A stretch of DNA of 64,000 nt from an uncultured bacterium (GTDB lineage: Bacteria; Zixibacteria; MSB-5A5; CAIYYT01), in the NCBI GenBank assembly GCA_963726455.1, contig CAVSCK010000004.1, positions 480,001 through 544,000 of the forward strand. The letters run 5' to 3'. A model generated the notes under the pieces. It searched no databases. It was not told the DNA's origin and saw only the letters and a list, made by a program, of their open reading frames with translations. The position numbers and the translations under genes are program-made. The first letter of the stretch is position 1. Every line of letters starts with the position of its first letter. Positions 3,785 to 21,632 of the stretch are shown here, piece after piece.

Positions 3785-5719
3785 ATGAAATGGATGTTTG
3801 CTACCTTGGCGTACTTGGTAATCTGGTCTGGCTTCACATCACGTTTGCTATACTCAGCCGACCGAGAGATGCTGTCTCCAATTGAGGTAGGGAGTGTGAG
3901 TGCTGACACCATTGGAGAAGGAGTTGTATCCACGATCTCGCTCAAAGTACTCTGCTGGCCAAATCAACTGAGTAAAGTAACCGCCAGAATTGTACCGGGA
4001 ACCGGCTACGAAGTCGTGGGTCAGCCGCCGGATTCATACGAGAGGCCGGACATTGAAGCGGTCGTATTCAGAGCTACGATTCGCGCAACCTCTCACGGTA
4101 TCTGGGAGGTCGGGGTCGAAGTTTCGGGTGGCTGGTCCGACACTACGAGGTTGTCAGTTAATTCGCATTTCTACATTCAAGTGAACGATTCTTCGAGTCG
4201 AGTCCTCAGTGCCGCAGAGTATTCCTCCCTCCAAGGCGATGCAGGCAAAGTGACAAAGAACCCTACTAGGAGCAGTAAGTCAATCCCGCACAATACAGGG
4301 AAGATGTCGAAGCCGAGAATCCTTTCAACAAGACAAGACTCTGTTGCTAGGATTCGGAAAGAAGAGAAGATCAACGATACGACCCGGCACAAGAGCGAAG
4401 CGCCGTCCTCTATTGATACATCGAAAGCAAAAGAAGGCGACACGCGAAAAATGATTGGAACCTTTGATTTGTGCGGCTCTCTTTCGTACCATGATTCACG
4501 CGACCCGCAAGGATGGACAAGACCTGCCGTAAACGTCATGGTAGAGGTTTGGAACGAAAACGAATACGACATTCCGCCATCCGGCGATCAACTACTCGGA
4601 ACTGGTATAACCGATTGGACCGGCTCCTATACGTTCTCGTTCTTAGATAACACTGACGAGGACGGAACAGCAGACCCGTACATCGTCTGGCGAAGCGATA
4701 ACGCAGACTGGGAGGTGAGACGTCCCAATGCGGGAGACATATACAGATGGTATTCGCAAATTATGCGCGATGCCGCCGATGACGAGACAGTTGAGTTCGG
4801 CGATCATACTATTCAGAGCTATCCCGAGGCTATGTAGTGCTTTCAGTTTGTCAACCTTGGTTGGAATGAAGCCGACTACGTTGGGCCTGACCCTGGATTT
4901 GTTTCGTGCATTTGGCCAGACGCCTCTACTTACACCAGCAATCTTGGTGATGTGATTCATATCACGTCGGATTATGCTCGAGCGATAGACGTTGTAAACC
5001 ACGAGTATGGGCACGCAATGATGATGCAGCACTATTACAATAGTGTCGTTTGGGGGTGCAACCAGACGGGGATAAATGTTATCTCATGTCCGAGCACTGC
5101 ATGGAGAGAAGGGTGGGCCACGTTCTTCGCCCTAGTTGTGACGCCCGACGGCGTGATGGACTACGACATCCCGGGACAGGGGGTACATTTCCCAATCGAA
5201 ATCCCGCAGTTTACTCCTTTCGAGCAAGGTCCATCCGTTACAGGTAGGGTTGCTGGGGCCCTCCTCGATGTCTGGGATACGAATAACGATAATTTGGATC
5301 AGAACTCGTCCAACCCAGTGAGTTTTGGGACATTGTACACCTGGGGGGTTCAGAATCATGTAGACACCTTTTTTTACGCATACTGGACCTATTTACGTTA
5401 TAATGAACTCAGCAGTCAACAGGTAGCTGCCGGACTTCAGTCCATAGCCAACAACACTATCGATTACAGTTGCACTTTGTGCGGCGATGCAAACAGTGAC
5501 GGAACCATAGACGTTTCAGATGCAGTGTTCTTGATTCAATACATTTTTGCAGGTGGCGCCGCTCCCGGCTCATGCAGTTACCCCCTCGGAAAGGGCGACG
5601 CTGACGGCACTGGCACTGTAGATATCTCGGATGCTTCGTTTCTAGTTTCGCACATTTTTGCCGACGGTCCCTGTCCACATTGTCTCGGAGCACCTGAACT
5701 ACCTCAGCCATGCCCCTGA
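3785..5719 (+). CDS. Secreted gluzincin-type metallopeptidase with C-terminal dockerin-like module, interrupted by a single in-frame TAG at 4835-4837
   Basis: ORFs 3785..4837 and 4952..5719 share a frame and the intervening codons are open. N-terminal signal-like segment, HEYGH plus downstream EG(W) ligand, C-terminal GDANSDGTIDVSDAVFLIQYIF. Confidence 0.75.
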
Positions 5720-5924: not shown

Positions 5925-6287
5925 CTGAGTAGTTTCGAAACATATTTCCCGATCTTCTTCCAGATCGTTCTGGCCATCATCATCGGGGCGTTCATGTTCG
6001 GCCTCTCGGCATCGCTCGGAAAGCGTTCGCGCAGCATTGTCAAAGATGAAGCTTACGAATGTGGCATCGAAGCTACCACCGATACCCGCCAACGTTTCTC
6101 GGTAAAATTCTATCTCGTTGCCATACTATTTATTGTCTTCGATCTCGAGACAATATTTCTCTTTCCGTGGGCGGTTAATTTCAAACAACTCGGACTATTC
6201 GGACTCGTGGAGATGGTCATCTTCATCCTGATCCTCCTTGTCGGTTACGTATATATCGTGAAGAAAGGAGCGATCAAATGGGATTAG
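5925..6287 (+). CDS. nuoA: NADH-quinone oxidoreductase subunit A (probable CTG start)
   Basis: [33 protein letters not shown] at 5915-5920 precedes an in-frame CTG that restores TM1. Confidence 0.93.
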
Positions 6288-6769
6288 AAGAAAAAATCCC
6301 GGACGGGATAGTTTTGGCGACGGCAGAGAAGCTCGTCAATTGGGCGCGCAAACGGTCAACCTGGCCCTTCGGCTTCGGGCTGGCTTGTTGTGCGATCGAG
6401 ATGATGTCTTCCTTCGGGCCCAAGTATGACCTCTCGCGCTTCGGAATGGAAGTTATGCGCGCCTCGCCGCGTCAGGCCGATCTTATGATTGTCGCCGGCA
6501 GAGTATCGAACAAGATGGCGCCGGTACTCAAACGTCTTTACGATCAAATGCCCAATCCGAAATGGGTAATCGCCATGGGCGCCTGTGCGTCCTGTGGCGG
6601 GGTATTCAACAACTACGCGATTCTTCAGGGCGTTGATAAGATCGTGCCCGTGGATATATACGTGCCCGGTTGTCCGCCGCGGCCCGAACAACTGATTGAC
6701 GGTATCGTCAAACTGGAGAAGTTGATCGAACAGGAGAAGCTCAAAGGCGAATCGAAACAAAGCGCTTGA
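6278..6769 (+). CDS. nuoB: NADH-quinone oxidoreductase subunit B
   Basis: [24 protein letters not shown]. Confidence 0.97.
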
Positions 6770-6804
6770 GCATAGCAACAAAGGATCGTAGCTAAGTTTA
6801 CTTG

Positions 6805-7305
6805 ATGAATAACGTCACTCAAGAGCGGGTCAAGTCTCAATTCGGGGATCGAATACTGGAAACAGTAGTCGCCTACGACGAATTGACTTTCGTCGTGGAC
6901 AAGTCTGCTGTTGTCGAGCTGGCCCGTTTTCTCCGCGACGATAATTCCCTCAAGTACCTGCATCTCTCCGACATTACTGCGACTGACTGGCCCGCACGTC
7001 CGAAAAGATTCGAGGTCGTTTATCATCTGATGTCGTTCGATCTCAAGGATTATGTCCGCCTCAAAGTTCGCGTTGGCGAAGACGAACCCGTGCCAACTCT
7101 GACGGGCGAATGGGACACCGCGAACTGGCTCGAACGCGAAGTCTACGACATGTTCGGCATCAAATTCGCCGGTCATCCGGACATGCGCCGCATTCTCATG
7201 TGGGATGAATTCGAAGGCCATCCACTGCGCAAGGATTATCCGCTGACCTACGAGGTGCCACAGTTTACCTACAATAAGGATTTGCCGCCGGAGGTCATCA
7301 AGTAA
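6805..7305 (+). CDS. nuoC: NADH-quinone oxidoreductase subunit C
   Basis: WLEREVYDMFGI, GHPDMRRIL, GHPLRKDYP. Confidence 0.96.
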   Translation: MNNVTQERVKSQFGDRILETVVAYDELTFVVDKSAVVELARFLRDDNSLKYLHLSDITATDWPARPKRFEVVYHLMSFDLKDYVRLKVRVGEDEPVPTLTGEWDTANWLEREVYDMFGIKFAGHPDMRRILMWDEFEGHPLRKDYPLTYEVPQFTYNKDLPPEVIK

Positions 7306-8474
7306 TGCGCACCGAGACGATGACCGTCAATCTCGGTCCGCAACATCCCGCGACTCACGGGGTGCTTCGTGTCGTGCTTGAACTCGATGGCGAAATCGTG
7401 GTGAAATGCACGCCGGAAATCGGCTACCTGCACACCGGTATCGAAAAGACCGCCGAAGCCAAGCTCTATTACAAAGTCATTCCTTTGACTGACCGCATGG
7501 ACTATCTCGCACCCATGTCGAATAATCTCGGCTATTGCCTGGCGGTGGAGAAGCTTTTCGGCGTTGAAGCCCCGCCCAAAGCGCAATGGGCGCGTGTACT
7601 CCTGACCGAAATCACCCGACTGAATTCACATATCGTCTGGCTGGGAACTCACGCGCTGGATATCGGCGCCATGAGTATGCTGCTTTACACCTTCCGCGAA
7701 CGCGAGGATTTGCTCTATATATATGAAGCTGTTTCCGGCCAGCGAATGATGTCCACGTATTTTCGTATCGGCGGCCTGGCTGCCGACCTGCCGGAGGATT
7801 TCGAAAAGCGTGTCCGCCGAGTCCTGGATACTTTCCCGGGGCGCTTCGAAGAATATGAGAACATTCTGACGAACAACCGCATTTGGCGCAACCGCACCAT
7901 CGGCGTCGGCGTGATCAGTAAGGAAGAGGCGCTTACGTCGGGGCTCACCGGTCCGCTGTTGCGCGCTGCCGGCGTCAAATACGATCTGCGTAAAGCCAGG
8001 CCGTATTCGAGCTACGAAAAATTCGATTTCGAGATTCCGACCCGCGAAGCTTCTGATTGTTTCGCACGGTACGAAGTTCGCCTCGAGGAAATGCGCCAAA
8101 GTTTGCGCATCATCAAGCAGGCGCTGGAAGGTATGCCGGAAGGACGTTATCGCGCCGATGCACCCGGTATCGTGAATCCGACCAAGGAAGAAGCGCTCTA
8201 TCAGATGGAAGCCATGATCTATCACTTCAAGCTGACGACCGAAGGTTTCCATCCTCCCAAAGGCGAAGTCTACGTGACCATCGAATCGCCCAAAGGTGAA
8301 CTCGGATACTACATCGTTTCCGATGGCGGCACGCGGCCATACCGCATGCGCGTGCGTCCGCCAAGCTTTGTGAATATCGCGGCGTTGTCGAAGCTGGTGG
8401 TTGGCAGACTGCTGGCGGACGTCATTGCCTGTATCGGATCGGTGGACATCGTACTGGGTGAGGTGGACAGATGA
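7305..8474 (+). CDS. nuoD: NADH-quinone oxidoreductase subunit D
   Basis: NLGPQHPATHGVLR, GYLHTGIEK, C-terminal DIVLGEVDR. Confidence 0.97.
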   Translation: MRTETMTVNLGPQHPATHGVLRVVLELDGEIVVKCTPEIGYLHTGIEKTAEAKLYYKVIPLTDRMDYLAPMSNNLGYCLAVEKLFGVEAPPKAQWARVLLTEITRLNSHIVWLGTHALDIGAMSMLLYTFREREDLLYIYEAVSGQRMMSTYFRIGGLAADLPEDFEKRVRRVLDTFPGRFEEYENILTNNRIWRNRTIGVGVISKEEALTSGLTGPLLRAAGVKYDLRKARPYSSYEKFDFEIPTREASDCFARYEVRLEEMRQSLRIIKQALEGMPEGRYRADAPGIVNPTKEEALYQMEAMIYHFKLTTEGFHPPKGEVYVTIESPKGELGYYIVSDGGTRPYRMRVRPPSFVNIAALSKLVVGRLLADVIACIGSVDIVLGEVDR

Positions 8475-8947
8475 TCTTATCAGATGCGGCTAAGTTAAAA
8501 ATTTCACAAGCTGGCAAGAAATATCCAAAGATAAAGTCTGCTATTTTGCCGGCTCTGCATATTGCCTACGAAGAGCATGGTTATCTTAGCGACCAAATGT
8601 ACGAGGAGATCTCGCAAATACTTGGACTGAAATTTATCGAGGTTGCCGAGGCCGCCTCATTCTATACGATGTTTCCCAAGGCCAAACGCGGCAAGTACCT
8701 GTTGCAGGTCTGCCGCAATATTTCGTGCGCCTTATTGGGTTCGCATCATTTACGAGACTACCTGCTCGAAAAGCTGGGCGTGCGACTTGGAGAGACCACC
8801 GCCGACGGTCTGTTCACCGTGGTCGAGGTCGAATGCCTCGGCAGTTGTACGACCGCTCCGATGATGCAGGTCAACCAACATTACTATGAGAATCTCACGG
8901 TTGAGAAAGTCGACCGCCTGATTGAGGAATTCCGGGGCCGGAAATAG
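8471..8947 (+). CDS. nuoE: NADH-quinone oxidoreductase subunit E
   Basis: 2Fe-2S ligands CRNISC and ECLGSC. Confidence 0.95.
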   Translation: MILSDAAKLKISQAGKKYPKIKSAILPALHIAYEEHGYLSDQMYEEISQILGLKFIEVAEAASFYTMFPKAKRGKYLLQVCRNISCALLGSHHLRDYLLEKLGVRLGETTADGLFTVVEVECLGSCTTAPMMQVNQHYYENLTVEKVDRLIEEFRGRK

Positions 8948-8952
8948 ATCTG

Positions 8953-10243
8953 ATGGAAACGAAGATACTCACTGAGTTTGTCAGCGATCCGCAACAGCAC
9001 ACAATTGACCGTGCCATTGAGCATGGCGCCTATCAGGCATGGCAGAAAGTGCTCAAGGATATCAAGCCCGACGAACTTGATTCAAATGGTCAAGGACTCC
9101 GGCTTGCGCGGTCGCGGCGGCGCGGGATTCCCGACTGGAATGAAGTGGAGCTTCGTTCCCAAAAACTCGCCCAAACCGAAATACCTTTGCTGCAACGCCG
9201 ACGAATCCGAGCCCGGCACCTGCAAGGATCGTGTTTTGCTCGAAGGTGATCCGCACGCAGTTGTCGAGGGAATGGCAATTGCCTCGTATGCCATCGATTG
9301 TCATACGGCATTCTTCTATATCCGCGGCGAATATGACGTCAGCCAGGTTCGCATGTCCAAAGCAATCGAGGACGCCTACGCCAAAGGATATCTCGGCAAA
9401 AACATTTTTGGCACCGGCTATGATCTTGACATCGTCGTGCACCGTGGTGGCGGCGCATATATATGTGGCGAAGAAACCGCGCTGCTCAGTTCGCTTGAAG
9501 GCGACAAAGGGCTGGCGCGTTTGAAACCTCCGTTCCCGGCGGTCGAGGGCCTGTACAATTGCCCGACCATCATCAACAACGTCGAAACCCTTGCCAATTT
9601 GCCCCGCATTGTAATGAAGGGCGCGCAGTGGTTCGCCAGCCTGGGTACCGAAAAATCCAAAGGCACGAGAATCTTCTCGGTCTCCGGCCATGTAAAGAAG
9701 CCGGGTAACTACGAGTTGGAGCTTGGCTATTCATTGCGCGATCTCGTTTACGGCCTCGCCGGGGGCATCAAGGATGACAAGCAACTCAAGGCGATTATTC
9801 CCGGCGGCTCATCCACACCGATTCTTTTGCCCGACAAGCTCGACACCAAATTGGATTTCGAATCGGTCGCCGCAGCGGGTTCCATGCTCGGTTCCTGTGC
9901 CGTCATCGTGATGGACGAGGACACTTGCATCGTCTGGATCGCCGAAATTCTGGCGCACTTCTATATGCACGAATCCTGCGGCAAGTGCACTCCCTGCCGG
10001 CAGGGTACCGGCTGGATGTATGAAATCATCCGCCGCATTGAAGCAGGCAAGGGCAAAATGGAAGACCTGGACACGCTGATGGATATCGCTAAGAATATCG
10101 AAGGGAACACGATTTGCCCGCTGGGCGACGCAGCCGCAGTCCCGGTCATTTCTGCGCTAAGTCTATTCCGGGATGAATTTGTTTATCACATCGAGAACGG
10201 CAGATGCAAGGCGCCGACTCGATTTCGCATGAGAGAGAAATGA
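8953..10243 (+). CDS. nuoF: NADH-quinone oxidoreductase subunit F (apparent +1 frameshift near 9078)
   Basis: GLRGRGGAGF, NADESEPG, YICGEETAL, CGKCTPC. The N-terminus lies in ORF 8953..9249 and the rest in 8978..10243. Confidence 0.95.
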
Positions 10244-12840
10244 GCGATTTCAATATAACAGTCAACGGCCAGCAGGTTCCGGTTGTCAAAGGCCAGACGG
10301 TGCTTCAGGCATCTTTGGCTGCGGGCATCGATATTCCGGTGTTCTGCTGGCACCCGCAACTTGTTCCTGTAGGCGCCTGTCGTATCTGCCTCGTGGAAAT
10401 TGAGAAGTTCCCCAAGCTGCAGGTTGCTTGTGCTACTGTTGCCACGGACGGCATGATTGTTCACACGGAATCGCCCAAGACCATCAAAGCCCGCCAGAGT
10501 GTCCTTGAGTTCATTCTCGCTCATCATCCGCTCGATTGCCCAACCTGCGACAAGGGCGGCGAATGCGATCTGCAAAACATCACGTTCAAGTACGGCCTCG
10601 ATTACAGCCGGCAGCTCGAGCCGAAACACCGCTTTATCGTCGATCCAACATCAACCTTCGACGACTGGCGCATTGGTCCCGAGGTGATTCGCAATCAGAA
10701 TCGCTGCATCCATTGTTTTCGTTGCACGCGCATCGTAAATGAAATCGCCTTTGAGGATGACCTCGGCGCCTATCAGCGCGGATATCACACCGAAATTCTG
10801 CCGCCGCCCGGACGCGAAATTCACAATCTGTATTCTGGAAACGTCGTTGAATACTGTCCTGTCGGCGCTCTGACTAATACCGATTGGCGTTACAAAGTGC
10901 GCGTCTGGCTCACCAAGCAGGCAAACACGATTTGTCCGCACTGCCCGGACGGCTGCAACATGAAGCTCTGGACGTTCCACAACAAGTTGTTCCGGGCAAC
11001 CTCTAATGCCAACGAAGACATTGACTGCGGCTTCCTATGCGATATCGGTCGCTATGGTTATCAGTATGTTCAGAGTCCTGACCGCATCAAGCGGCCCATG
11101 GTCCGACGCAAGGGTGAACTGGTCGAGACCTCATGGGATGAAGCGCTTGGCTTGATCAAACGCCAGACTGATGACATTAAATCCAAGTTGTCAGGTAGTG
11201 GCTTCTTCGGCTTTATCGGCGACATCAGGACTGACGAAGAGGTCTATTCCTTCCAGCGATTCCTGCGCCGCGTTATCGGCTCGAACAACATCGATCACCG
11301 CTTCCATCGCCGCCGTCGGCTTTCGCCTGGTGAGGAAGTCGCCATGCGCGGTATTGGCTCGGATGACCTTGAATTCAAAGATATCGAAAACGCCGATGTC
11401 ATCGTGATTTTCGGATCCGACTTGCACTCCGAGGACCCGATTACTTCGCTGCGTGTCAAGCGGGCTGTCTTCCGTCACAATGCCAAAGTGGTTTTGCTCA
11501 ACCCGTTGCCGACGCCACTGAACAAACGCACGGCCACGCTGGAAGTAATCTATAAACCGGGCACCGGCGCCGTGCTTCTGCATGGCATTATTGACACGAT
11601 TATGAATCTGCCACAGTTCGATCCGGCAGCGGTCGGTCTTGATGCCAACGAACTGGCGGAATTTCGTAAAGCTAATGCTTCATATACGGCGGCTCAGACG
11701 GCGAATATCTGCAGCGTCGAACTTGAAACCTTGTCTCAGGCCGCCCAGTTCATTTTTGGCGCACGGAATCTCGTCATTATTGGCGGAAGCTACGTCGAAC
11801 GCGACGCCTTCCGCGACTCGCTGCATTTGGCAGTTGCGAATCTGCAACGGTTCTGCAAATCAGCGAAGAAACTATTTCTGCCGCCAGACAGCAATACGAT
11901 GGGCGCGTCCTTCTTCGGCGCCGAGCCAGGATTCCTCCCGGGCAAGCAGCCCTGGTCGAAAAAATCCTTCTACGAAGATCTCTGGCACGGCCCGATACCC
12001 GAAATGGCGGGGAAGGACACAATCGGCATTCTTGAAGCTATCGACGAAGATGAAATCGAATGCGGCTTCGTGTTCAATGCCGATCCGGTGCGCTTGTTCC
12101 CGGACGGCAATTATGTCCGGTCGGTTATGGAGAAGCTGAAGTTGCTCGTGGTGGTGGACAGCTTCATGACTGAGACCGCGCGTCTTGCCGATGTCATTCT
12201 GCCGATGTCGACTTTCGCCGAGACTGAGGGTACGCGCGTCAATTGGGAATATCGTCTGCAATACTCACAACGGGCAATTCCTCCGTTGTATGAATCAAAA
12301 CCCGGCTGCGAAATCGTTGAGCTGTTGGCAGACAAACTTGGTGTTAAGTTCAGCCAACCGGGGCCGTCCGATGTCTTCAAAGAAATGGCGCGCTGTCTGC
12401 CCGCAAACGCGCCGACAACATTCGCTGCTTTCGGCAAGGCCGGATACCTGATTCGTTCTGCCGATGCGAAGAAACCCGCGAAACTTGCCGAGATCAAATT
12501 CACGCCGCCGGCCATCGATACCGAATATCGGTTTGCGTTATTGATCGGTAATGCTGATCATCACCGCGGCATGTTGACGGAGCGTAATGAATCCCTGCTA
12601 AAATTCACCGGTGAGCCGTTCGTCGGCATCAGTGAAGCCGACGCCACTGAACTTGCGGTATCTGACGGTGACCTCGTCAAAGTCGAATCCAAGAACGGCA
12701 AGGTCATCGGTAAGGCACAGATTCTTTCCGGTTTCCCGAAACGGCGCGTGTTGTTGCCGGAGAACTTCAGCGAAATGACCACGAATTCCTTGATGAGTCG
12801 CCAGGACAAGATCGATTTCGTCAAGTTGGTGAAGATGTAG
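10240..12840 (+). CDS. nuoG: NADH-quinone oxidoreductase subunit G
   Basis: GACRIC, HPLDCPTCDKGGECDLQ, CIHCFRC, CPVGAL, CPHCPDGC; molybdopterin-oxidoreductase-like C-terminus. Confidence 0.95.
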   Translation: MSDFNITVNGQQVPVVKGQTVLQASLAAGIDIPVFCWHPQLVPVGACRICLVEIEKFPKLQVACATVATDGMIVHTESPKTIKARQSVLEFILAHHPLDCPTCDKGGECDLQNITFKYGLDYSRQLEPKHRFIVDPTSTFDDWRIGPEVIRNQNRCIHCFRCTRIVNEIAFEDDLGAYQRGYHTEILPPPGREIHNLYSGNVVEYCPVGALTNTDWRYKVRVWLTKQANTICPHCPDGCNMKLWTFHNKLFRATSNANEDIDCGFLCDIGRYGYQYVQSPDRIKRPMVRRKGELVETSWDEALGLIKRQTDDIKSKLSGSGFFGFIGDIRTDEEVYSFQRFLRRVIGSNNIDHRFHRRRRLSPGEEVAMRGIGSDDLEFKDIENADVIVIFGSDLHSEDPITSLRVKRAVFRHNAKVVLLNPLPTPLNKRTATLEVIYKPGTGAVLLHGIIDTIMNLPQFDPAAVGLDANELAEFRKANASYTAAQTANICSVELETLSQAAQFIFGARNLVIIGGSYVERDAFRDSLHLAVANLQRFCKSAKKLFLPPDSNTMGASFFGAEPGFLPGKQPWSKKSFYEDLWHGPIPEMAGKDTIGILEAIDEDEIECGFVFNADPVRLFPDGNYVRSVMEKLKLLVVVDSFMTETARLADVILPMSTFAETEGTRVNWEYRLQYSQRAIPPLYESKPGCEIVELLADKLGVKFSQPGPSDVFKEMARCLPANAPTTFAAFGKAGYLIRSADAKKPAKLAEIKFTPPAIDTEYRFALLIGNADHHRGMLTERNESLLKFTGEPFVGISEADATELAVSDGDLVKVESKNGKVIGKAQILSGFPKRRVLLPENFSEMTTNSLMSRQDKIDFVKLVKM

Positions 12841-12841
12841 G

Positions 12842-13825
12842 ATGCTGCTATTCATCCTTATCACGGTTATCAAGTCCCTGGTCATTCTGACCGTGCTGCT
12901 CTTGACCTGTGCCTGGATGACTTATGCCGAACGCAAATTTGTCGCGTTCATGCAATCGCGCATCGGGCCGAATGTCGCCGGTTGGTATGGATTGCTCCAG
13001 CCGGTAGCCGATTTGGTCAAGCTCTTGCTTAAGGAAGAAGTGCTTCCCGGTGGCGCCAACCGGACTCTGTATTTGTTGGCTCCGCTTATGGTGTTTATCC
13101 CGGCGATGTTGCCGATCGCGATGATACCAATCGGTAAGGATATAACGCTTTTCGGTCACACGATCCCGCTGGTAATATCTAATTTCAATCTTGGCCTGTT
13201 GTTCGTATTCGCCATCACTTCGCTCGGAGTCTACGGGATTGTAATGGCCGGCTGGTCGGCCAACAGCAAGTATTCTTTGCTGGGTGGTCTGAGATCCTCC
13301 GCGCAGATGGTTTCCTACGAGATCGGGCTCGGCATGTCCGTAATCGGTCTGCTCGTGCTGGCGGGAACCTTGAATCTTGTCGAAATTGTAAACCAGCAAA
13401 GCGTCTGGTACAAATGGTATATCTTCCGTCAGCCGCTTGGCTTCCTGCTCTATTTTATCTGCGCGATCGCGGAGACCAATCGTTCGCCGTTTGACCTGCC
13501 GGAAGCGGAATCCGAATTAGTTGCCGGTTACTTTACCGAATATTCGTCCATGCGTTTCGGCCTGTTCTTCGTCGGCGAGTATGCCAACATGGTTACCGTC
13601 GCCGCGGTCGCTACGACATTATTCCTCGGCGGCTGGCAGGGTCCATTCTTGCCGCCGGTGTTGTGGTTTATTATCAAGGCCGCCGCGTTGCTCTTTTGCT
13701 ACATCTGGATTCGCGCCAGTTTGCCGCGATTCCGTTACGACCAGTTGATGAAATTCGGCTGGTATGTCGTCATCCCGCTGGCACTCGCCAATATTCTGGT
13801 GACGGCACTGATAGCGTTGCTCTAG
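12842..13825 (+). CDS. nuoH: NADH-quinone oxidoreductase subunit H
   Basis: ERK..RIGPN, GLLQPVAD, AETNRSPFDLPEAESELV, PRFRYDQLM. Confidence 0.97.
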   Translation: MLLFILITVIKSLVILTVLLLTCAWMTYAERKFVAFMQSRIGPNVAGWYGLLQPVADLVKLLLKEEVLPGGANRTLYLLAPLMVFIPAMLPIAMIPIGKDITLFGHTIPLVISNFNLGLLFVFAITSLGVYGIVMAGWSANSKYSLLGGLRSSAQMVSYEIGLGMSVIGLLVLAGTLNLVEIVNQQSVWYKWYIFRQPLGFLLYFICAIAETNRSPFDLPEAESELVAGYFTEYSSMRFGLFFVGEYANMVTVAAVATTLFLGGWQGPFLPPVLWFIIKAAALLFCYIWIRASLPRFRYDQLMKFGWYVVIPLALANILVTALIALL

Positions 13826-13835
13826 GAGGTTAGAG

Positions 13836-14345
13836 TTGTTCAGGATACTCAAACAGATCGTCATCGCCATCCCGATCGGGATGTACACCGTGCTGAAACA
13901 GATGTTTCGCAAGCCGGTGACGATTCAATATCCGTTCGAGAAAGAGCCGATGATGCCGCGCTATCGCGGACTGCACTTTCTCGAACGCTACGAGGACGGC
14001 TCCGAGCGCTGCGTCTGCTGTGGCCTCTGTGCGGCTTCGTGCCCGGCGGATGCGATATATATGGAGCCGGGCGAGACCGAGAGGGGAGAGCGCTACGCGA
14101 AAGTCTATGAGATCAACGAACTCCGCTGCATCTTCTGCGGCTTCTGCGAAGAGGCCTGTCCGGAGGAAGCGATCTTCCTCGGCAAGGAATATGAATTTGC
14201 CGACTCGCGGCGTGACAAATTCATCTATACGAAAGAGGATTTGCTGGTGAAGTGGCCGCGCGAAAAGCCGTCTGAGGTCAAATTCATCCGCAAGGACCGG
14301 CGCGTCAATTGGGATGACGTGCCGGAAATCAAGGAGCAGGAATAA
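13836..14345 (+). CDS. nuoI: NADH-quinone oxidoreductase subunit I
   Basis: TIQYP and two CxxCxxCxxxCP motifs. Confidence 0.96.
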   Translation: MFRILKQIVIAIPIGMYTVLKQMFRKPVTIQYPFEKEPMMPRYRGLHFLERYEDGSERCVCCGLCAASCPADAIYMEPGETERGERYAKVYEINELRCIFCGFCEEACPEEAIFLGKEYEFADSRRDKFIYTKEDLLVKWPREKPSEVKFIRKDRRVNWDDVPEIKEQE

Positions 14346-14349
14346 GCTC

Positions 14350-14850
14350 ATGGGTCTGGCAATCTTTTTCATCACTGCCGCCGTCGCAATCGTCGCCGCG
14401 GTCTTGGTGATTGTGCAACGCAACCCGATTTCCTCAGTGATGTATCTGGTAGTGACCTTCGTGGCTCAGGCCGTCCTGTTCATTCAACTTCAGGCCGCCT
14501 TCATCGCCATGCTCCAGGTTATCGTATACGCCGGAGCGATTATGGTGCTATTCCTGTTTGTGATCATGTTGCTCAATTTGCGCCGCGAGGAATTCGGCAA
14601 AGATGTCAAACTGAAATTCAAACCCGTGGCGATTGCTTTCGCCGTGGTGTTGTTGATAGAAACGATAGTCGTGATCAACGCTTCACTGATGCCCGCGCAG
14701 CCCGCCGCCGAATTGTCGGCAACCTTCGGTTCCGTTCAGGAAGTCGGCAAAGAGTTGTTCACGACCTATCTATATCCTTTTGAACTGACCTCAGTGTTGC
14801 TGATCGTCGCGATTCTCGGCGCTGTGGTCATGGCGAAGAAGAAGCTGTAG
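14350..14850 (+). CDS. nuoJ: NADH-quinone oxidoreductase subunit J
   Basis: QVIVYAGAIMVLFLFVIMLL, YPFELTS. Confidence 0.95.
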   Translation: MGLAIFFITAAVAIVAAVLVIVQRNPISSVMYLVVTFVAQAVLFIQLQAAFIAMLQVIVYAGAIMVLFLFVIMLLNLRREEFGKDVKLKFKPVAIAFAVVLLIETIVVINASLMPAQPAAELSATFGSVQEVGKELFTTYLYPFELTSVLLIVAILGAVVMAKKKL

Positions 14851-14853
14851 ACT

Positions 14854-15156
14854 ATGGTTCCGCTGGAATATTATCTGATTGTCGCCGGAATGATCTTCAC
14901 GATCGGTATGATCGGCGTGATCATTGCCCGCAACATCATAATCATTTTCATGTCGGTCGAGTTGATGCTCAACGCCGCCAATCTGGCGATGATCGCCTTC
15001 TCGCGTAATCTCGGCTCGATGGGCGGACACGTTATGGTCTTTATGATTATGACGGTCGCTGCGGCGGAAGCTGCGGTCGGCCTGTCGATTATTATCGCGC
15101 TGTTTCGCAATCGCGACAGCGCCAACATTGATGAAGTCAACCTGTTGAAGTGGTAG
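14854..15156 (+). CDS. nuoK: NADH-quinone oxidoreductase subunit K
   Basis: ELMLNAAN, AAAEAAVGL. Confidence 0.96.
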   Translation: MVPLEYYLIVAGMIFTIGMIGVIIARNIIIIFMSVELMLNAANLAMIAFSRNLGSMGGHVMVFMIMTVAAAEAAVGLSIIIALFRNRDSANIDEVNLLKW

Positions 15157-15169
15157 CGCCGAAGGTACG

Positions 15170-17102
15170 ATGGAATTGATCTGGCTCATACCGCTTGTCC
15201 CGCTCGCCGGCTTCATACTCAACGGCCTGTTCGGCAAGAATTTCAGCAAGCCGGTCATCAATACTATTGCCTGCGGCTCCGTAGCGGTTTCGTTCCTGCT
15301 TTCCCTGAATGCTTTCTTCGGCCTCCTGCGTCTTGATCCCGAGGCCCGAAGTTTCGAATACATTTTGTTCTCGTGGATTCCTTCGGGCAACTTCAGTGCC
15401 GACATTGGATTTTTGCTCGATCCGCTATCGGCCGTCATGATTCTTGTCGTCACCGGCGTCGGTCTGTTGATCCACATCTATTCCATCGGCTACATGGCCC
15501 ACGACGAGGGCTATCCGCGCTTCTTCACTTACATGAATTTGTTCATGGCCTCGATGTTGACGCTTGTCCTTGCCAACAACTTCGTGCTCATGTACGTCGG
15601 CTGGGAAGGCGTCGGCCTCTGCTCATACTTGCTGATTGGTTTCTGGTACGAAAAGAAGTCCGCTACCGATGCCGGCAAAAAAGCGTTCATCGTCAACCGC
15701 ATCGGCGATTTCGGATTTGCTCTCGGAATAATGCTATTGTTCTGGACGCTCGGTTCGGTGCATTTTTCGACCGTTTTCAATTTGGCTCCCCAACAACTTG
15801 CTTACGGTGGGGGAGTGGTCACGGCGGCGACGCTGCTGTTATTCCTCGGCGCTACCGGTAAGTCTGCTCAGGTGCCGTTGTACGTCTGGCTTCCTGACGC
15901 TATGGAGGGCCCGACCCCGGTCTCCGCATTGATTCACGCCGCGACGATGGTCACTGCCGGTGTCTACATGGTCGCGCGCTGTAATGTGCTGTACGTGATG
16001 GCTCCGACGACGTTACTTGTGGTCGCCATTGTCGGCATCTTCACCGCCTTCTACGCCGCGACAATCGGTCTCTTCCAGAACGACATTAAGCGTGTGCTTG
16101 CCTATTCCACCATCAGTCAGCTTGGTTATATGTTCGCTGCCTGCGGTGTCGCCGCTTTCGGCGCGGGTATCTTCCATCTTATGACGCATGCTTTCTTCAA
16201 AGCTTTGTTGTTCCTGGGCGCCGGTTCGGTGATTCACGCCATGAGTGGCGAGCAGGACATGCGTCGCATGGGTGGTCTCAAAGGCAAACTGCCCGCGACC
16301 TACACGACCATGATAATTGCGACGCTGGCAATTGCCGGCATCCCGTTGTTCTCCGGCTTCTTCTCAAAAGACGAAATTCTCTGGCAGGCGTTTTCCTCGC
16401 CGTTCGGCTCTCCGATTCTCTGGGTTGTCGGCCTGATCACCGCCGGTCTGACTGCGTTCTACATGTTCCGCCTGATTTACATGACTTTCTTCGGTGAGCG
16501 CCGCTACGACGACCACACGGCCGCGCATCTGCACGAATCACCTCGCGTTATGACCGTGCCGTTGATGATTCTCGGCGTTCCTGTCGCTGGTCGGCGGCTA
16601 CGTCGGCCTTCCCAAGGCACTCCTTGGCGGCGCTTGGTTCGAGCATTTCTTGCATCCGGTATTTGCCAGGGGCGCCGAAATCGGCAAGCTCGCGGAAGCG
16701 GCAGGGGAGTCGCATGCGACTGAATACATCCTCATGATTGTCGCTGTCGCATTGGTGGTCGTCATGATTCTGACTGCCAAGCGTTTCTATCTTGATCGCG
16801 CCAAACAGTCAGAGCAATTTGAGCAGGGCTTCGGCGGGCTCTATAAGCTGATTTATCACAAGTATTACATAGATGAACTGTACGACAAGGCCATCGTCAA
16901 TCCCATGGTCAAAGGATCAAATTTCCTCTGGCAGAAATTCGATGTCCTGATTATCGACGGCGCGGTGAACGGCGCCGCCTGGCTGATCGGCCAATGGGCG
17001 ATGGGCTTCCGCAAACTGCAAACCGGCATGGTGCGCAGTTACGCCTTCGTCTTTCTCGGCGGCGCGATCTTTGTGATCGGCTATTTGATTTTGAGCAGGT
17101 AG
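15170..17102 (+). CDS. nuoL: NADH-quinone oxidoreductase subunit L (apparent frameshift near 16580)
   Basis: [35 protein letters not shown]; the C-terminus (YIDELY, QTG..RSY) lies in ORF 16650..17102. Confidence 0.95.
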
Positions 17103-17104
17103 CA

Positions 17105-18662
17105 ATGAACGAACAGATATTGACCATCGTAACTTTCCTTCCCACAGTGGGCGCGATCATATTGCTCCTGCTGCGCGAACAGATGAAGCAGGCGATCAAA
17201 GTGACCGCGCTGGCAACATCGGTGGTCACGTTCCTGTTCTCCACCTATCTTTATTTCAATTTCCAACCCGGCACTGCCGCCATGCAATTCGTCGTTCACA
17301 AACCCTGGATTCCGGCGCTCGGTGTCACCTATCACCTGGGCATTGACGGCATCAGTCTGTTTCTCGTTCTCTTGACCACTCTGCTCACTGCGATCTCGAT
17401 ACTATCCGCCTGGACGGCCGTGGCCGACCGCGTCAAGGGATTCATGGTCTCGCTACTGATCCTGGAAACCGGCATGCTCGGCGTCTTTGTGTCGCTCGAT
17501 CTGTTCCTGTTCTATGTCTTCTGGGAAGTCATGCTGGTTCCGATGTACTTCCTCATCGGCATCTGGGGCGGCATCAACCGCATCTATGCAGCCATCAAAT
17601 TTGTCTTGTTCACGATGTTCGGCTCGCTCCTGATGTTGGTCGCCATCGTGGCGCTATACATTATTCGTTATAAGGCAACCGGAGTTTGGTCGTTCGACCT
17701 CTTATCATATTATGATTTGCGAATCCCACTCGGCGCTCAGAATTGGCTTTTCATCGCCTTTGCGCTGGCGTTCCTGATCAAAGTCCCGATGTTCCCGTTC
17801 CATACCTGGTTACCGGATGCCCACGTACAAGCGCCGACCGCCGGCTCCGTGATTCTGGCTGGGGTGCTGCTGAAAATGGGCACCTATGGTTTCCTGCGTT
17901 ATTGCATACCGATGTTCCCAAATGCCTTTGACGCCTTCATGCCGCTGTTGGCGGTGCTGGCACTGATCGGCATCATTTACGGTGCGCTCGTGGCGATGGT
18001 GCAGAAGGATGTCAAATCGTTGGTCGCATTTTCATCCGTCGCCCACATGGGATTTGTCATGATCGGAATGTTCGCCCTCAACATGCAGGGTGTGCAGGGT
18101 TCAATTCTGCAAATGCTCAATCATGGCATCTCGACCGGAGCCCTGTTCCTGGTCGTCGGCATGATCTACGAACGACGGCACACGCGCTTGATCGATGATT
18201 TCGGAGGCATCTTCAAGGTCATGCCTGTCTTTACGACATTCTTCATGATCATAACTTTGTCATCAATCGGTTTGCCCGGCACCAACGGTTTCGTCGGCGA
18301 GTTCCTGATTCTGCTCGGCACTTTCGGCATGAACAAGGTCTACGCCGTGATCGCCACCTCCGGCATCATCCTGGCCGCTGTCTACATGCTCTGGATGTTC
18401 CAGCGTGTGATGTTCGGCAAGTGCGAAAAACCGGAGAATCTCAAGCTGACCGATATCAATCTCCGCGAAAAACTCGTACTGATCCCGCTTGATCGTCCTG
18501 ATCTTCTGGATCGGACTCTACCCGAAACCATTCCTCGACGCGATGGCGCCTTCGGTGCAGAATCTGATCGAGCAGACCAATGGGAAACGTATGCACCTTT
18601 CGCAGAGTTTCACGCCTGACAGAGAATGGGTTATTGCCACTGCGACGGCGGTGGAGGAGTAA
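17105..18662 (+). CDS. nuoM: NADH-quinone oxidoreductase subunit M (apparent frameshift near 18490)
   Basis: [25 protein letters not shown]. The shifted frame gives IFWIGLYP...TAVEE* ending at TAA 18660-18662. Confidence 0.95.
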
Positions 18663-18667
18663 ACGAC

Positions 18668-18892
18668 ATGGCCAATGTAAAGATCTACACCAAGGTTGGC
18701 TGTCCTTACTGCGCCAAAGCTAAAGAGGATTTCAAAAAGCGTGGCGTCGACTTTGAAGAAATCGACGTCCATAATGTTCCCGGTGCCGCCGAGGAGGCGG
18801 CGAAATACGCCAAAGGCCAGAAAGTCGTGCCGGTGATTGTCGAGAATGGCAAGGTCACCCTCGGCTACGGCGGCGGGTCATGAGGATTCTAA
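18668..18892 (+). CDS. Glutaredoxin-like (CPYC) protein with predicted C-terminal selenocysteine (UXX-stop type): ...GYGGGS-U-G-F*
   Basis: GGAGGAG RBS; TKVGCPYC; VVPVI cis-Pro motif; TGA at 18881 followed by GGA TTC TAA and a hairpin. Confidence 0.85.
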
Positions 18893-18918
18893 CCGACGGC
18901 AGTTTGTCGTCTTAGGAT
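18884..18918 (+). promoter_or_regulatory. Putative bacterial SECIS element
   Basis: ATTCTAA-CC-GACGGCA-GTT-TGTCGTC-TTAGGAT: a bulged stem-loop immediately 3' of the TGA with G at the start of the apical loop. Confidence 0.7.
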
Positions 18919-18939
18919 GAAACATTAAAGAGATACTTG

Positions 18940-20395
18940 ATGAATATTCCGAACGTTGATTTCGCCCTGTTGTCGCCCTCGTTGATAGTCTGTATCACCG
19001 GGTTGCTGACGATGGTCATGGTGCCGTTCCTGAGTGAACGGCGGCAGGTTATCGTCGCGCATGTCAGTTGGCTGGGTTTGGCTATCGCTCTGGTCGCCGT
19101 GTCACAACAGATCGGCAAGAACGCCACGACCTTCGACGGCATGTTCCTCGGCGATGACTTCAGCCAGTTCTTCAACGGCATCTTTATTGTCGCCTCGATG
19201 CTGACGATTTTCACGTCGATCGATTACCTTCGCCGCAAGGAGAACGAGCACGGGGAATACTATCCGCTTATTCTCTTCGCCACCTACGGCATGATGGTCA
19301 TGGCATCGACTGCGAATTTGCTCGTGATCTTCCTTGGCCTCGAAATTATGTCGGTGGCACTGTACGTTCTCGCCGGTTTTGCGCGCACCGAATTGAAATC
19401 AACTGAGGCCGCTGTCAAGTATTTCTTGCTGGGCGCCTTTGCGACCGGATTCACCGTTTTCGGTATTGCCTTCATCTACGGCGCGACCGGTACTTTCGAC
19501 ATCGCGCGCATCGCAGGTGTTGCCTTCGGTTCGTCCAGTGTCGATACCTTCTTGACTGATCGGTGGCGCCTTGTTGGCGATTGGGTTTGGCTTCAAAGTC
19601 TCCGCCGTGCCGTTCCACATGTGGACTCCGGACGCCTACGAAGGTGCTCCCTCACCGATAACCGGCTTTATGTCCGCCGGTCCCAAGGCCGCCGCCTTTG
19701 CCGCCATGTTACGCATCTTCATCGTCGGATATGCCGGCGTCGGCGCTCATATTCAGACGTTGTTCTGGATTCTGTCGGTCGCCACCATGACGGTTGGCAA
19801 CATCATGGCGCTTCGGCAAAGCAACATCAAACGCATGCTCGCTTTTTCGTCAATCGCGCATGCCGGCTACATTCTCATCGCCCTGGCAGTCAGTAGCAGC
19901 GAATCTTCGTCTGCCGCTGCATTATACTTGTTGGCGTACGCGCTGACTAATCTCGGCGCCTTTATGGTCATTGCTCTGGTAGATTCCGCCTCGCAGCACG
20001 ATGAGTTCACGACAATTGATTCTTTCACCGGCCTCGCACGTAAACGTCCTTATTTGGGACTGGCGCTCACGCTGTTTCTGTTGTCGCTGGCCGGATTCCC
20101 GCCGACTGCGGGTTTTATGGGTAAGTTCGTGCTCTTCAAAGCCGCTGTTGATCAGGGCTATTACATGCTGGTTGTCATCGCCGTGATGAACAGCTTGGTA
20201 TCGGTGTTCTACTACTTGCGCGTTGTCGTGAAGATGTTCATGAGCGATGCGGAAGAGCAGGCCGTTGAGGTACCCGCCGTTCCCGCGTTCCTTATGGTGG
20301 CACTGGTATTTGCTGTGGCGGCTGTATTCCTGATCGGTGTCTATCCGCAGGCCTGGTTCAATTTCGCCGGGCTGTCAATCCTCGGCGGCAACTGA
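18940..20395 (+). CDS. nuoN: NADH-quinone oxidoreductase subunit N (apparent frameshift near 19556)
   Basis: [44 protein letters not shown]. Confidence 0.95.
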
Positions 20396-21632
20396 CGCGC
20401 CGCCTCCCATATTCATTCCCGCAATCCATCCCGTCGTCCACGCGCTCTGAAAATTGTATCCGCCGGTGATTCCGTCGATATCGAGTATCTCTCCAGCCAA
20501 ATACAATCCCGGACAGACCCGGCTCTCCATCGTGCCGAAAATCAACTTCTTTCAGTTTCACTCCGCCGCAAGTTACGAATTCCTCTTTGAATTCGCCCTT
20601 GCCGATAATCGCGAATTCTCCTTGGCACAACTCTGACGAGATCCGTGCCAGTCCGTCCCTGGTAATATGCGACCACGTTACCGAATCATCGACTCCCGCC
20701 GTGCTCACAATGCGTTCCCAGAATCTGCGTGGCAGGGGCAGGAGACTGCTTGTCATCACAAACTTCGTTGGATTCTCTTCGCGGTACGCTCGCATGGCAG
20801 CAAGCACCGACTCTGCATCATGGTCGGCGATCCAATTGATTTGCAGTTTGGCTTGATACCGACTCTCGAAGAGTTTGCGCGCGCCCCAGGCCGATAATTT
20901 CAGTACCGCCGGGCCGCTCAATCCCCAGTGTGTAATCAGAACCGGACCCGCTTGCTCGAAACATTTCTTGCCGTCAATTGATAGCATCAACTTTGAGTTG
21001 GGAAAACTCAATCCCTGCAACTGATCGAGCCGTGCATCCTTAATCTTGAAGGTGAACAACGACGGGACAGGGGGGATGATCGAATGACGAAGCGACGCCG
21101 CGATCCTGTAACCTTGCTCGCTCGATCCCGTGGCCAGCATCACGCAATCAAAAAGTTCAGTTGCACCATCTTTGAGATGAATCGCAAATCGCCGTCCGAT
21201 GGAGTCGTCCGAAATCTTAACGTCAACTACGCGCGCGCCAAGCCGTTCTTGCACTCGCGCTTCGCGGGCACTCTTTCTCAGACATTCGATGATTGTCGCT
21301 GACAGATCGCTGACAGGGAACATGCGGCCGTCCTCTTCTGCTTTGAGTTCGACGCCGTACTTATTAAACCAGTTCACCGTATCGCGTGGCTGAAACTTGC
21401 GAAACGCCCCCAATAATTCCTTGCTACCGCGCGGATATCCTTCCACCATGAGTTCAGGATCGAAACAATGATGCGTGACATTGCATCTGCCACCGCCGGA
21501 GATTCCCACCTTATATAGCGGTTGATGCGTCCCCTCGAAAATCGTCACCTCTACGTTGTCGTAATGTTCCGCACAGGCAATAGCGCCGAAGTATCCCGCA
21601 GCGCCACCCCCGACCACAGCCACTCGTACCAC
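20375..21632 (-). CDS. HI0933/BaiN-family NAD(P)/FAD-dependent flavoprotein (apparent frameshift near 20535)
   Basis: [30 protein letters not shown]. The shifted frame gives [22 protein letters not shown]. Confidence 0.9.

Follow-up and report, generated by a model that had tools for sequence, protein, structure and literature searches.

Mitochondrial Grx2 acts on thiols of respiratory complex I, uses glutathione, contains no selenocysteine (Sec) and is not encoded together with complex I. As a glutaredoxin connected with complex I it is the nearest functional analogy to the gene described here, for which the connection is genomic only. Mammalian thioredoxin reductase is a flavoenzyme dimer with a C-terminal Gly-Cys-Sec-Gly arm; in our predicted protein, too, Sec would sit beside a dithiol centre, on a flexible C-terminal tail with flanking glycines, an arrangement suggestive of a selenenylsulfide relay, but the protein is unrelated to that enzyme in fold and size, lacks an adjacent cysteine in the tail and would depend on a bacterial SECIS element. 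The Uxx-star selenoproteins (umbrella model NF041212, with sub-families NF041114, NF041211 and NF047338) share with it the glutaredoxin fold, Sec as the third-last residue and a SECIS after the true stop. According to the table in the 2026 review PMC13188914, family 1 is marked by two Sec residues and a UxxT motif and family 2 by a GxGU motif; the same review credits the Uxx-star families to Zhang & Gladyshev (2008) and Haft & Tolstoy (2025) and raises the possibility that their Sec binds metals or unknown substrates. The glycine-rich stretch before the predicted Sec of our protein is comparable to the GxGU motif which that table lists for family 2, while the group to which our protein belongs differs from the Uxx-star family at large in having its own tail and a fixed position in the complex I (nuo) operon.

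The window, by which we mean the entire 64,000-nt stretch of DNA that was analysed, contains a nuo operon with one additional small gene, here called grx, between nuoM and nuoN. Its features, some of them located with the proteins of a relative of the same genus (L054), are as follows.

5994..20395, + strand: nuoA-N operon of the 14-subunit type, including nuoE, nuoF and nuoG and bearing an extra gene (Pfam and tblastn)
17105..18662, + strand: nuoM, its reading frame broken (+1) near 18490 in the assembly (tblastn with intact L054 NuoM)
18653..18659, + strand: Shine-Dalgarno sequence GGAGGAG of grx, in the last nuoM codons and abutting the nuoM stop TAA (sequence reading)
18668..18892, + strand: grx, predicted Uxx-star glutaredoxin-like selenoprotein gene, 74 codons plus TAA (translation with TGA as U; NF041212; PF00462; AlphaFold2)
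18701..18712, + strand: CPYC redox motif, Cys12 and Cys15 (C12, P13 and C15 invariant in 79 family members)
18881..18883, + strand: TGA predicted to be decoded as Sec, residue 72 (TGA in 81/81 distinct related sequences)
18886..18918, + strand: putative bacterial SECIS hairpin (MFE fold; covariation of the upper helix)
18890..18892, + strand: true stop TAA (stop at codon +3 in 81/81)
18937..20395, + strand: nuoN, its reading frame broken (+1) near 19555 in the assembly, start at TTG 18937 or ATG 18940 (tblastn)

Within the operon, Pfam profiles match NuoB, C, D, E, F, G, H, I and J between 6278 and 14850 (+), NuoL, NuoM and NuoN were identified in the window by tblastn with the L054 proteins, and a nuoA-like ORF at 5994-6287 is assigned from reading of the translation alone. 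L054 NuoM aligns in two parts, residues 1-462 at 17105-18490 (frame 2) and residues 462-518 at 18489-18659 (frame 3), with the nuoM stop TAA following at 18660-18662; L054 NuoN is likewise divided by tblastn on the window, into residues 1-206 (frame 1) and residues 207-485 (frame 2). Compared with the intact L054 genes, nuoL, nuoM and nuoN each contain a +1 frame break and the assembly therefore contains indels; taken together with the five-contig assembly, these breaks have the appearance of single-base indels left in a long-read assembly and not of pseudogenes. The grx ORF is free of frame breaks in this same assembly. The frame switches lie at 16575-16720 in nuoL, at about 18490 in nuoM and at about 19555 in nuoN, and an HI0933-like gene at 20358-21632 (-) apparently also runs on in a second frame (ORF 20375-20545). 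Upstream of the operon, the translation of 4952-5719 (+) contains, by eye, an HExxH-like metalloprotease motif and two Asp-rich repeats near its C-terminus that are dockerin- or calcium-binding-like. Between nuoM, grx and nuoN we detected no terminator-like site on the + strand, and the one promoter-like match found between genes is as many as shuffled sequences yield. The ribosome-binding site of grx, GGAGGAG at 18653-18659, lies within the end of nuoM, where the earlier note had placed it, and nuoN has a purine-rich stretch of its own 3' of the hairpin.

The grx gene begins at ATG 18668, contains a single TGA and ends GGC GGC GGG TCA TGA GGA TTC TAA, predicting a C-terminus of GGGSUGF. A search of 61 related genomes with the grx protein found it in 43, and all of the best 30 loci have two codons and then a stop after the TGA. 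Pooling these 30 with 35 loci from public contigs and 30 from a sample of the phylum gave 95 loci and 81 distinct sequences, every one of which has TGA at the predicted Sec position. Immediately after it, codon +1 encodes Gly in 79 sequences (GGA 47, GGT 13, GGC 12, GGG 7) and Asp in 2; codon +2 encodes Phe in most (TTC 33, TTT 31), otherwise Tyr (10) or Ile (7); and codon +3 is a stop in 81/81 (TAA 51, TGA 15, TAG 15). That the encoded amino acids are kept through synonymous third-position changes indicates that the codons following TGA are translated. The claim of a C-terminal Sec three residues from the end thus recurs as TGA-x-x-stop in all 81 sequences, and the alignment of homologues that had been proposed as a check returned both an unvarying TGA and covariation of the stem beyond it. 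The use of TGA as a general sense codon in this lineage was considered and rejected, TGA being the final stop of grx in 15 of the 81.

The minimum free energy fold of 18878-18925 is a bulged hairpin of -12.8 kcal/mol, in which 18886-18892 pairs with 18912-18918 as a lower stem, a CC bulge follows, and 18895-18901 pairs with 18905-18911 as an upper stem closed by a GUU loop (18902-18904). On its own the window hairpin is only modestly more stable than shuffled sequences (z = -1.98, with 9 of 200 shuffles folding equally well), and its lower stem is not generally conserved among relatives. The upper helix is another matter: in an alignment of 56 distinct nuo-linked sequences made by plain MAFFT with no structure fitting, 93.4% of cells at its six pairs are paired (26-62% once the partner is shifted by 1-3 columns), compensatory double changes occur in 6/6 pairs (61 cells), and none of 500 shuffles reached the observed pairing or covariation. 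A GC-rich hairpin lies directly 3' of the true stop at each locus, and a G-U is held in the loops across loci (AGUU, GUU, GGUC and similar). The bSECIS model carries a rule for the distance from UGA to the loop; among the 30 best-scoring hairpins, most have a loop that begins 19-25 nt downstream of the U of UGA. A similar tail and hairpin are present in 33 family members outside nuo operons. Comparison with Rfam gave no matching family for the region, only two matches at chance level (E 5.5 and 8.3). The bulged hairpin proposed as a SECIS directly 3' of the UGA folds as it had been drawn and covaries in all six pairs of its upper helix, and its end, said to fall about 20 nt before nuoN, lies 22 nt from ATG 18940. 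Across 30 loci the distance from hairpin to nuoN start is mostly 18-31 nt, start calls being rough. From fold and covariation, we take the hairpin to be a bacterial SECIS lying just 3' of the true stop and filling the space up to nuoN.

Recoding of UGA would make use of SelB and tRNA-Sec together with the SECIS hairpin, and the genome encodes this machinery: selA, selB, selC and selD, for which a search had been recommended, are all present. The selB gene (contig 3:128061-129908; 303 bits against a cut-off of 242) adjoins selA (515 bits), which in turn adjoins a tRNA-SeC gene with anticodon tca, forming a selC-selA-selB cluster, and selD on contig 4:1791814-1792734 has an in-frame TGA, i.e. 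it is the Sec form. A second selD on contig 3:645393-646257 is split over two adjacent frames, probably by an indel. Among related genomes, selB scores above its cut-off in 58 of 61. It is very probable, in our estimation, that window 18668-18892 is a genuine selenoprotein gene of the Uxx-star family, with UGA 18881-18883 recoded to Sec and a placement between nuoM and nuoN that has been kept through most of the phylum.

As the earlier note had supposed, the ORF encodes a thioredoxin/glutaredoxin-fold protein with CPYC at 18701-18712 (PF00462 Glutaredoxin, 59.3 bits; AlphaFold2 model) and belongs with the Uxx-star proteins (NF041212, 107.6 bits against a cut-off of 66). The NF041212 score is for the 74-residue form and spans profile positions 1-70 of 70; the 71-residue form scores 103.8 bits. 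Placement in the numbered families is less straightforward. The window protein, at 77.8 bits, falls short of the cut-off of 100 for family 2 (NF041211), as do three other nuo-linked members at 78.7-85.7 bits, and it misses family 3 (68.8 bits against 97). It marginally exceeds the family 1 cut-off (76.4 bits against 72), and the UxxT motif and second Sec of that family are absent, so that we do not assign it there. Because it combines CPYC with one predicted Sec, the window protein is best placed as a subgroup of its own under the NF041212 umbrella. Nuo-linked members share 41-80% protein identity and a tail of the form G-F-G-G-G/S-U-G-F/Y, and in a quick tree of 79 family members they cluster (3 label changes against 25.5 in shuffles), with 43 of 76 forks unresolved.

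The AlphaFold2 model, built from the 79-member alignment, has a pLDDT of 90.4 and a strand-helix-strand-helix-strand-strand order with no helix past residue 47; CPYC and the cis-Pro loop are invariant in the 79 members. Its best PDB matches are glutaredoxins, NrdH and methanoredoxin (TM 0.72-0.79), and the human Grx2 structures 2ht9 and 2fls also match the fold. E. coli Grx3 aligns to residues 2-63 and no further than its own chain residue 61 of 82, leaving its last 21 residues without a counterpart; given this and the lack of a late helix, the classical C-terminal helix appears to be replaced by the Gly-rich Sec tail. In the classical glutaredoxin fold that helix starts beside the active-site cysteine, so a selenenylsulfide between Sec and Cys12 is plausible. 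The protein does not qualify as a classical glutathione-dependent glutaredoxin (TIGR02181, the Grx3 model, 48.4 bits against a cut-off of 90). It resembles the NrdH/YruB-type proteins (TIGR02194, TIGR02196; 1h75, TM 0.77), which are also short CxxC redoxins of about 75 residues lacking a full glutathione site, but it falls below their cut-offs (88.55 and 85.75; 61.3 bits to TIGR02196), has no ribonucleotide reductase context and bears the Sec tail. The selenoprotein glutaredoxin of Clostridium oremlandii (cGrx1/cGrx2; 7c10, 4tr0; TM 0.78-0.79), one of the closest structural matches, likewise combines a small bacterial glutaredoxin fold with a Sec-using host; in the Sec form of that enzyme, according to PMC13188914, Sec is in the active-site U/CxxC, whereas the window protein has an all-Cys site and its predicted Sec on the C-terminal tail.

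The order nuoM-grx-nuoN, which the earlier note had proposed to look for in related genomes, is found in 95 of 95 loci (30/30, 35/35 and 30/30), one of which is cut before nuoN and three of which show only the end of nuoM at the end of a contig. In 22 complete loci, grx starts between 14 nt before and 15 nt after the nuoM stop (-14 to +15), and its own stop lies 21-50 nt from the nuoN start, a space that is essentially the hairpin. By its position, grx is thus predicted to be co-transcribed, and translated with near coupling, with nuoM and nuoN. The window genome has one copy of grx, in only one of its two nuo operons, the second nuo-like operon being on contig 3. A second NuoD-like locus is found there in two pieces (contig 3:457165-457902), and a third, weaker one (contig 4:1727900-1728409; 123 bits) may be a hydrogenase-type large subunit.

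In a phylum sample of 151 genomes, all within one class, grx occurs in 107 genomes, or about 70% of the sampled species, with no match in the other 44. The distribution is all-or-none by family: grx is near-universal in some (52/55, 15/15, 11/12, 9/10) and absent from others (0/11, 0/8, 0/6, 0/5). Submitters labelled the 35 nuo-linked public contigs as Zixibacteria (18), Ignavibacteria or a lower rank (9), Calditrichota (1) or FCB group (1), leaving 6 unlabelled. Loci L054-L125, although one class by genome search, bear conflicting labels (Zixibacteria, Ignavibacteria, Calditrichota, FCB group), and near-identical grx sequences are sometimes deposited under different phylum labels. A literature search, conducted without Haft & Tolstoy (2025, mSystems), the likeliest source on neighbourhoods of the family, returned no report tying a glutaredoxin or selenoprotein to nuoM or nuoN; the fixed place of grx inside the complex I operon of an uncultured phylum is apparently undescribed.

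The reading we favour, with about as much doubt as confidence, is that grx encodes a thiol/selenol oxidoreductase made together with complex I. It would act on the complex or on intermediates of its assembly, as a protective or accessory factor with which complex I can dispense. In such a mechanism a flexible Sec tail would take the place of the classical C-terminal helix that borders the active site. The target of this tail would be an oxidised thiol, in the form of a disulfide, sulfenate or mixed disulfide, in a subunit of complex I or an intermediate of its assembly. The attack would yield a selenenylsulfide for the CPYC pair to resolve, in a relay like that of the C-terminal arm of mammalian thioredoxin reductase.

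The main rival also accepts a real Uxx-star selenoprotein, and supposes that it is a general cytosolic redox or metal-handling protein that shares the nuo transcript for its expression; we regard this as a serious possibility, if a somewhat less probable one. It draws on two sets of observations. In five genomes of the same class that lack grx, nuoN comes immediately after nuoM in each of the two nuo operons, and these 10 loci have neither room for grx nor a trace of it between the two genes. NuoM of these genomes is up to 68.6% identical to the reference, as close as in grx-bearing genomes, and orthologous operons without grx are thus found in 5 of 5 grx-less genomes tested. Since these relatives possess the same operon without the gene, complex I does not need grx, and the protein would therefore be a protective or accessory factor and not a core subunit. 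The second set concerns 33 Uxx-star members of other phyla, none of which lies near nuo. In 8 loci labelled Thermoleophilia or Actinomycetes (L081, L082, L085, L087, L088, L098, L099, L117) an HMA-domain heavy-metal P-type ATPase gene is nearby, ending 0-82 nt upstream of the Uxx-star gene in 5 of the 8 and placed further up or downstream in the others, a neighbourhood in keeping with the proposed metal-ligand role in that branch. In 3 loci labelled actinomycete or Gaiellales (L080, L114, L129) an AhpC/TSA redoxin gene starts 31-56 nt after the Uxx-star gene, suggesting a peroxidase-reductant pair, and on Eremiobacterota-type contigs the Uxx-star gene lies between genes for TPR and GAF proteins. 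Against a general protein stands the retention of the nuoM-nuoN position in 95/95 loci while the protein itself diverges to 41-80% identity; a hitch-hiking gene should relocate or disappear more frequently. The overlapping or near-zero packing of the genes, and the presence of a single copy in its own genome in only one of two nuo operons, also argue against it.

A stronger version of the complex I connection would make the product a supernumerary redox-active component or dedicated repair factor of complex I in this phylum, its Sec tail keeping a thiol of the enzyme reduced and the spacer possibly tying NuoN synthesis to selenium. This seems to us unlikely, though well short of implausible. 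Of what would mark an accessory or core subunit, a conserved position in the operon is found, but presence wherever the orthologous complex exists is not. A search for longer proteins at E <= 1e-8 found no form fused to NuoM or NuoN, which is weak evidence, and within these two subunits no cysteine is specific to grx-bearing operons. NuoN has no conserved cysteine. In NuoM, Cys267 (L054 numbering; about 17900 in the window) lies just before a P-M-F-P motif; it was considered as a target and rejected, being present in 22/22 grx-bearing sequences but also in 2/10 grx-less ones and belonging to a membrane-helix motif. The functional tie to complex I put forward in the earlier note, as Fe-S repair or as an accessory subunit, stays conjectural, with five relatives running the operon without grx and members from other phyla beside unrelated genes.

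The arrangement might instead be mainly regulatory, in that the SECIS fills the spacer between grx and nuoN and Sec decoding would take the ribosome 9 nt further into the hairpin, coupling the production of NuoN, the final subunit of complex I, to the supply of selenium. The geometry would permit the effect of Sec decoding on nuoN translation that the earlier note had raised. The short distance from grx stop to nuoN start in 22 loci (just 21-50 nt), the similarly tight interval between hairpin end and nuoN start in most of 30 loci (18-31 nt on rough start calls) and the lack of a separate promoter or terminator signal above chance would all suit such a role. Yet the protein is strongly conserved, its CPYC and cis-Pro loop being invariant in 79 members, which means that the product of grx is itself of consequence; moreover, a purine-rich stretch belonging to nuoN follows the hairpin, and in grx-less genomes nuoN is expressed straight after nuoM. 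We consider a mainly regulatory role improbable. Least tenable of all, to the point that we set it aside, is a plain 71-residue glutaredoxin that ends at the TGA, with the hairpin serving as an intercistronic RNA element in the expression of nuoN or the stability of the transcript: it accords with the public annotation of at least 92 close homologues, the modest z-score of the window hairpin and the lack of an Rfam family, but against it stand the synonymous retention of amino acids beyond the TGA with a stop always next (81/81), the like tail and hairpin in 33 members with no downstream nuoN, the extension of the curated HMM NF041212 through U-x-x and the complete Sec machinery.

Whether the gene deserves to be called hidden, as it was in the earlier note, depends on where one looks. 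Public annotation of metagenome-assembled genomes does truncate it at the TGA, and the public records of at least 92 close homologues all describe proteins of 66-83 residues, called glutaredoxin where named and in no case selenoprotein. A curated NCBIfam model nonetheless exists; the kind of protein is already catalogued, and the NCBI pipeline would name the window protein. The consequence of cutting the annotation at the Sec codon is that the C-terminal selenol is absent from database records across the whole phylum.

On our favoured reading of an oxidoreductase made together with complex I, the conserved position of grx between nuoM and nuoN points to a redox helper that would be produced in step with the complex, and offers a testable bacterial parallel to the control of mitochondrial complex I by a glutaredoxin. 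It would also give a first way into the function of the Uxx-star family. Should the product prove to be a component or dedicated repair factor of the enzyme, complex I would have its first known selenoprotein.
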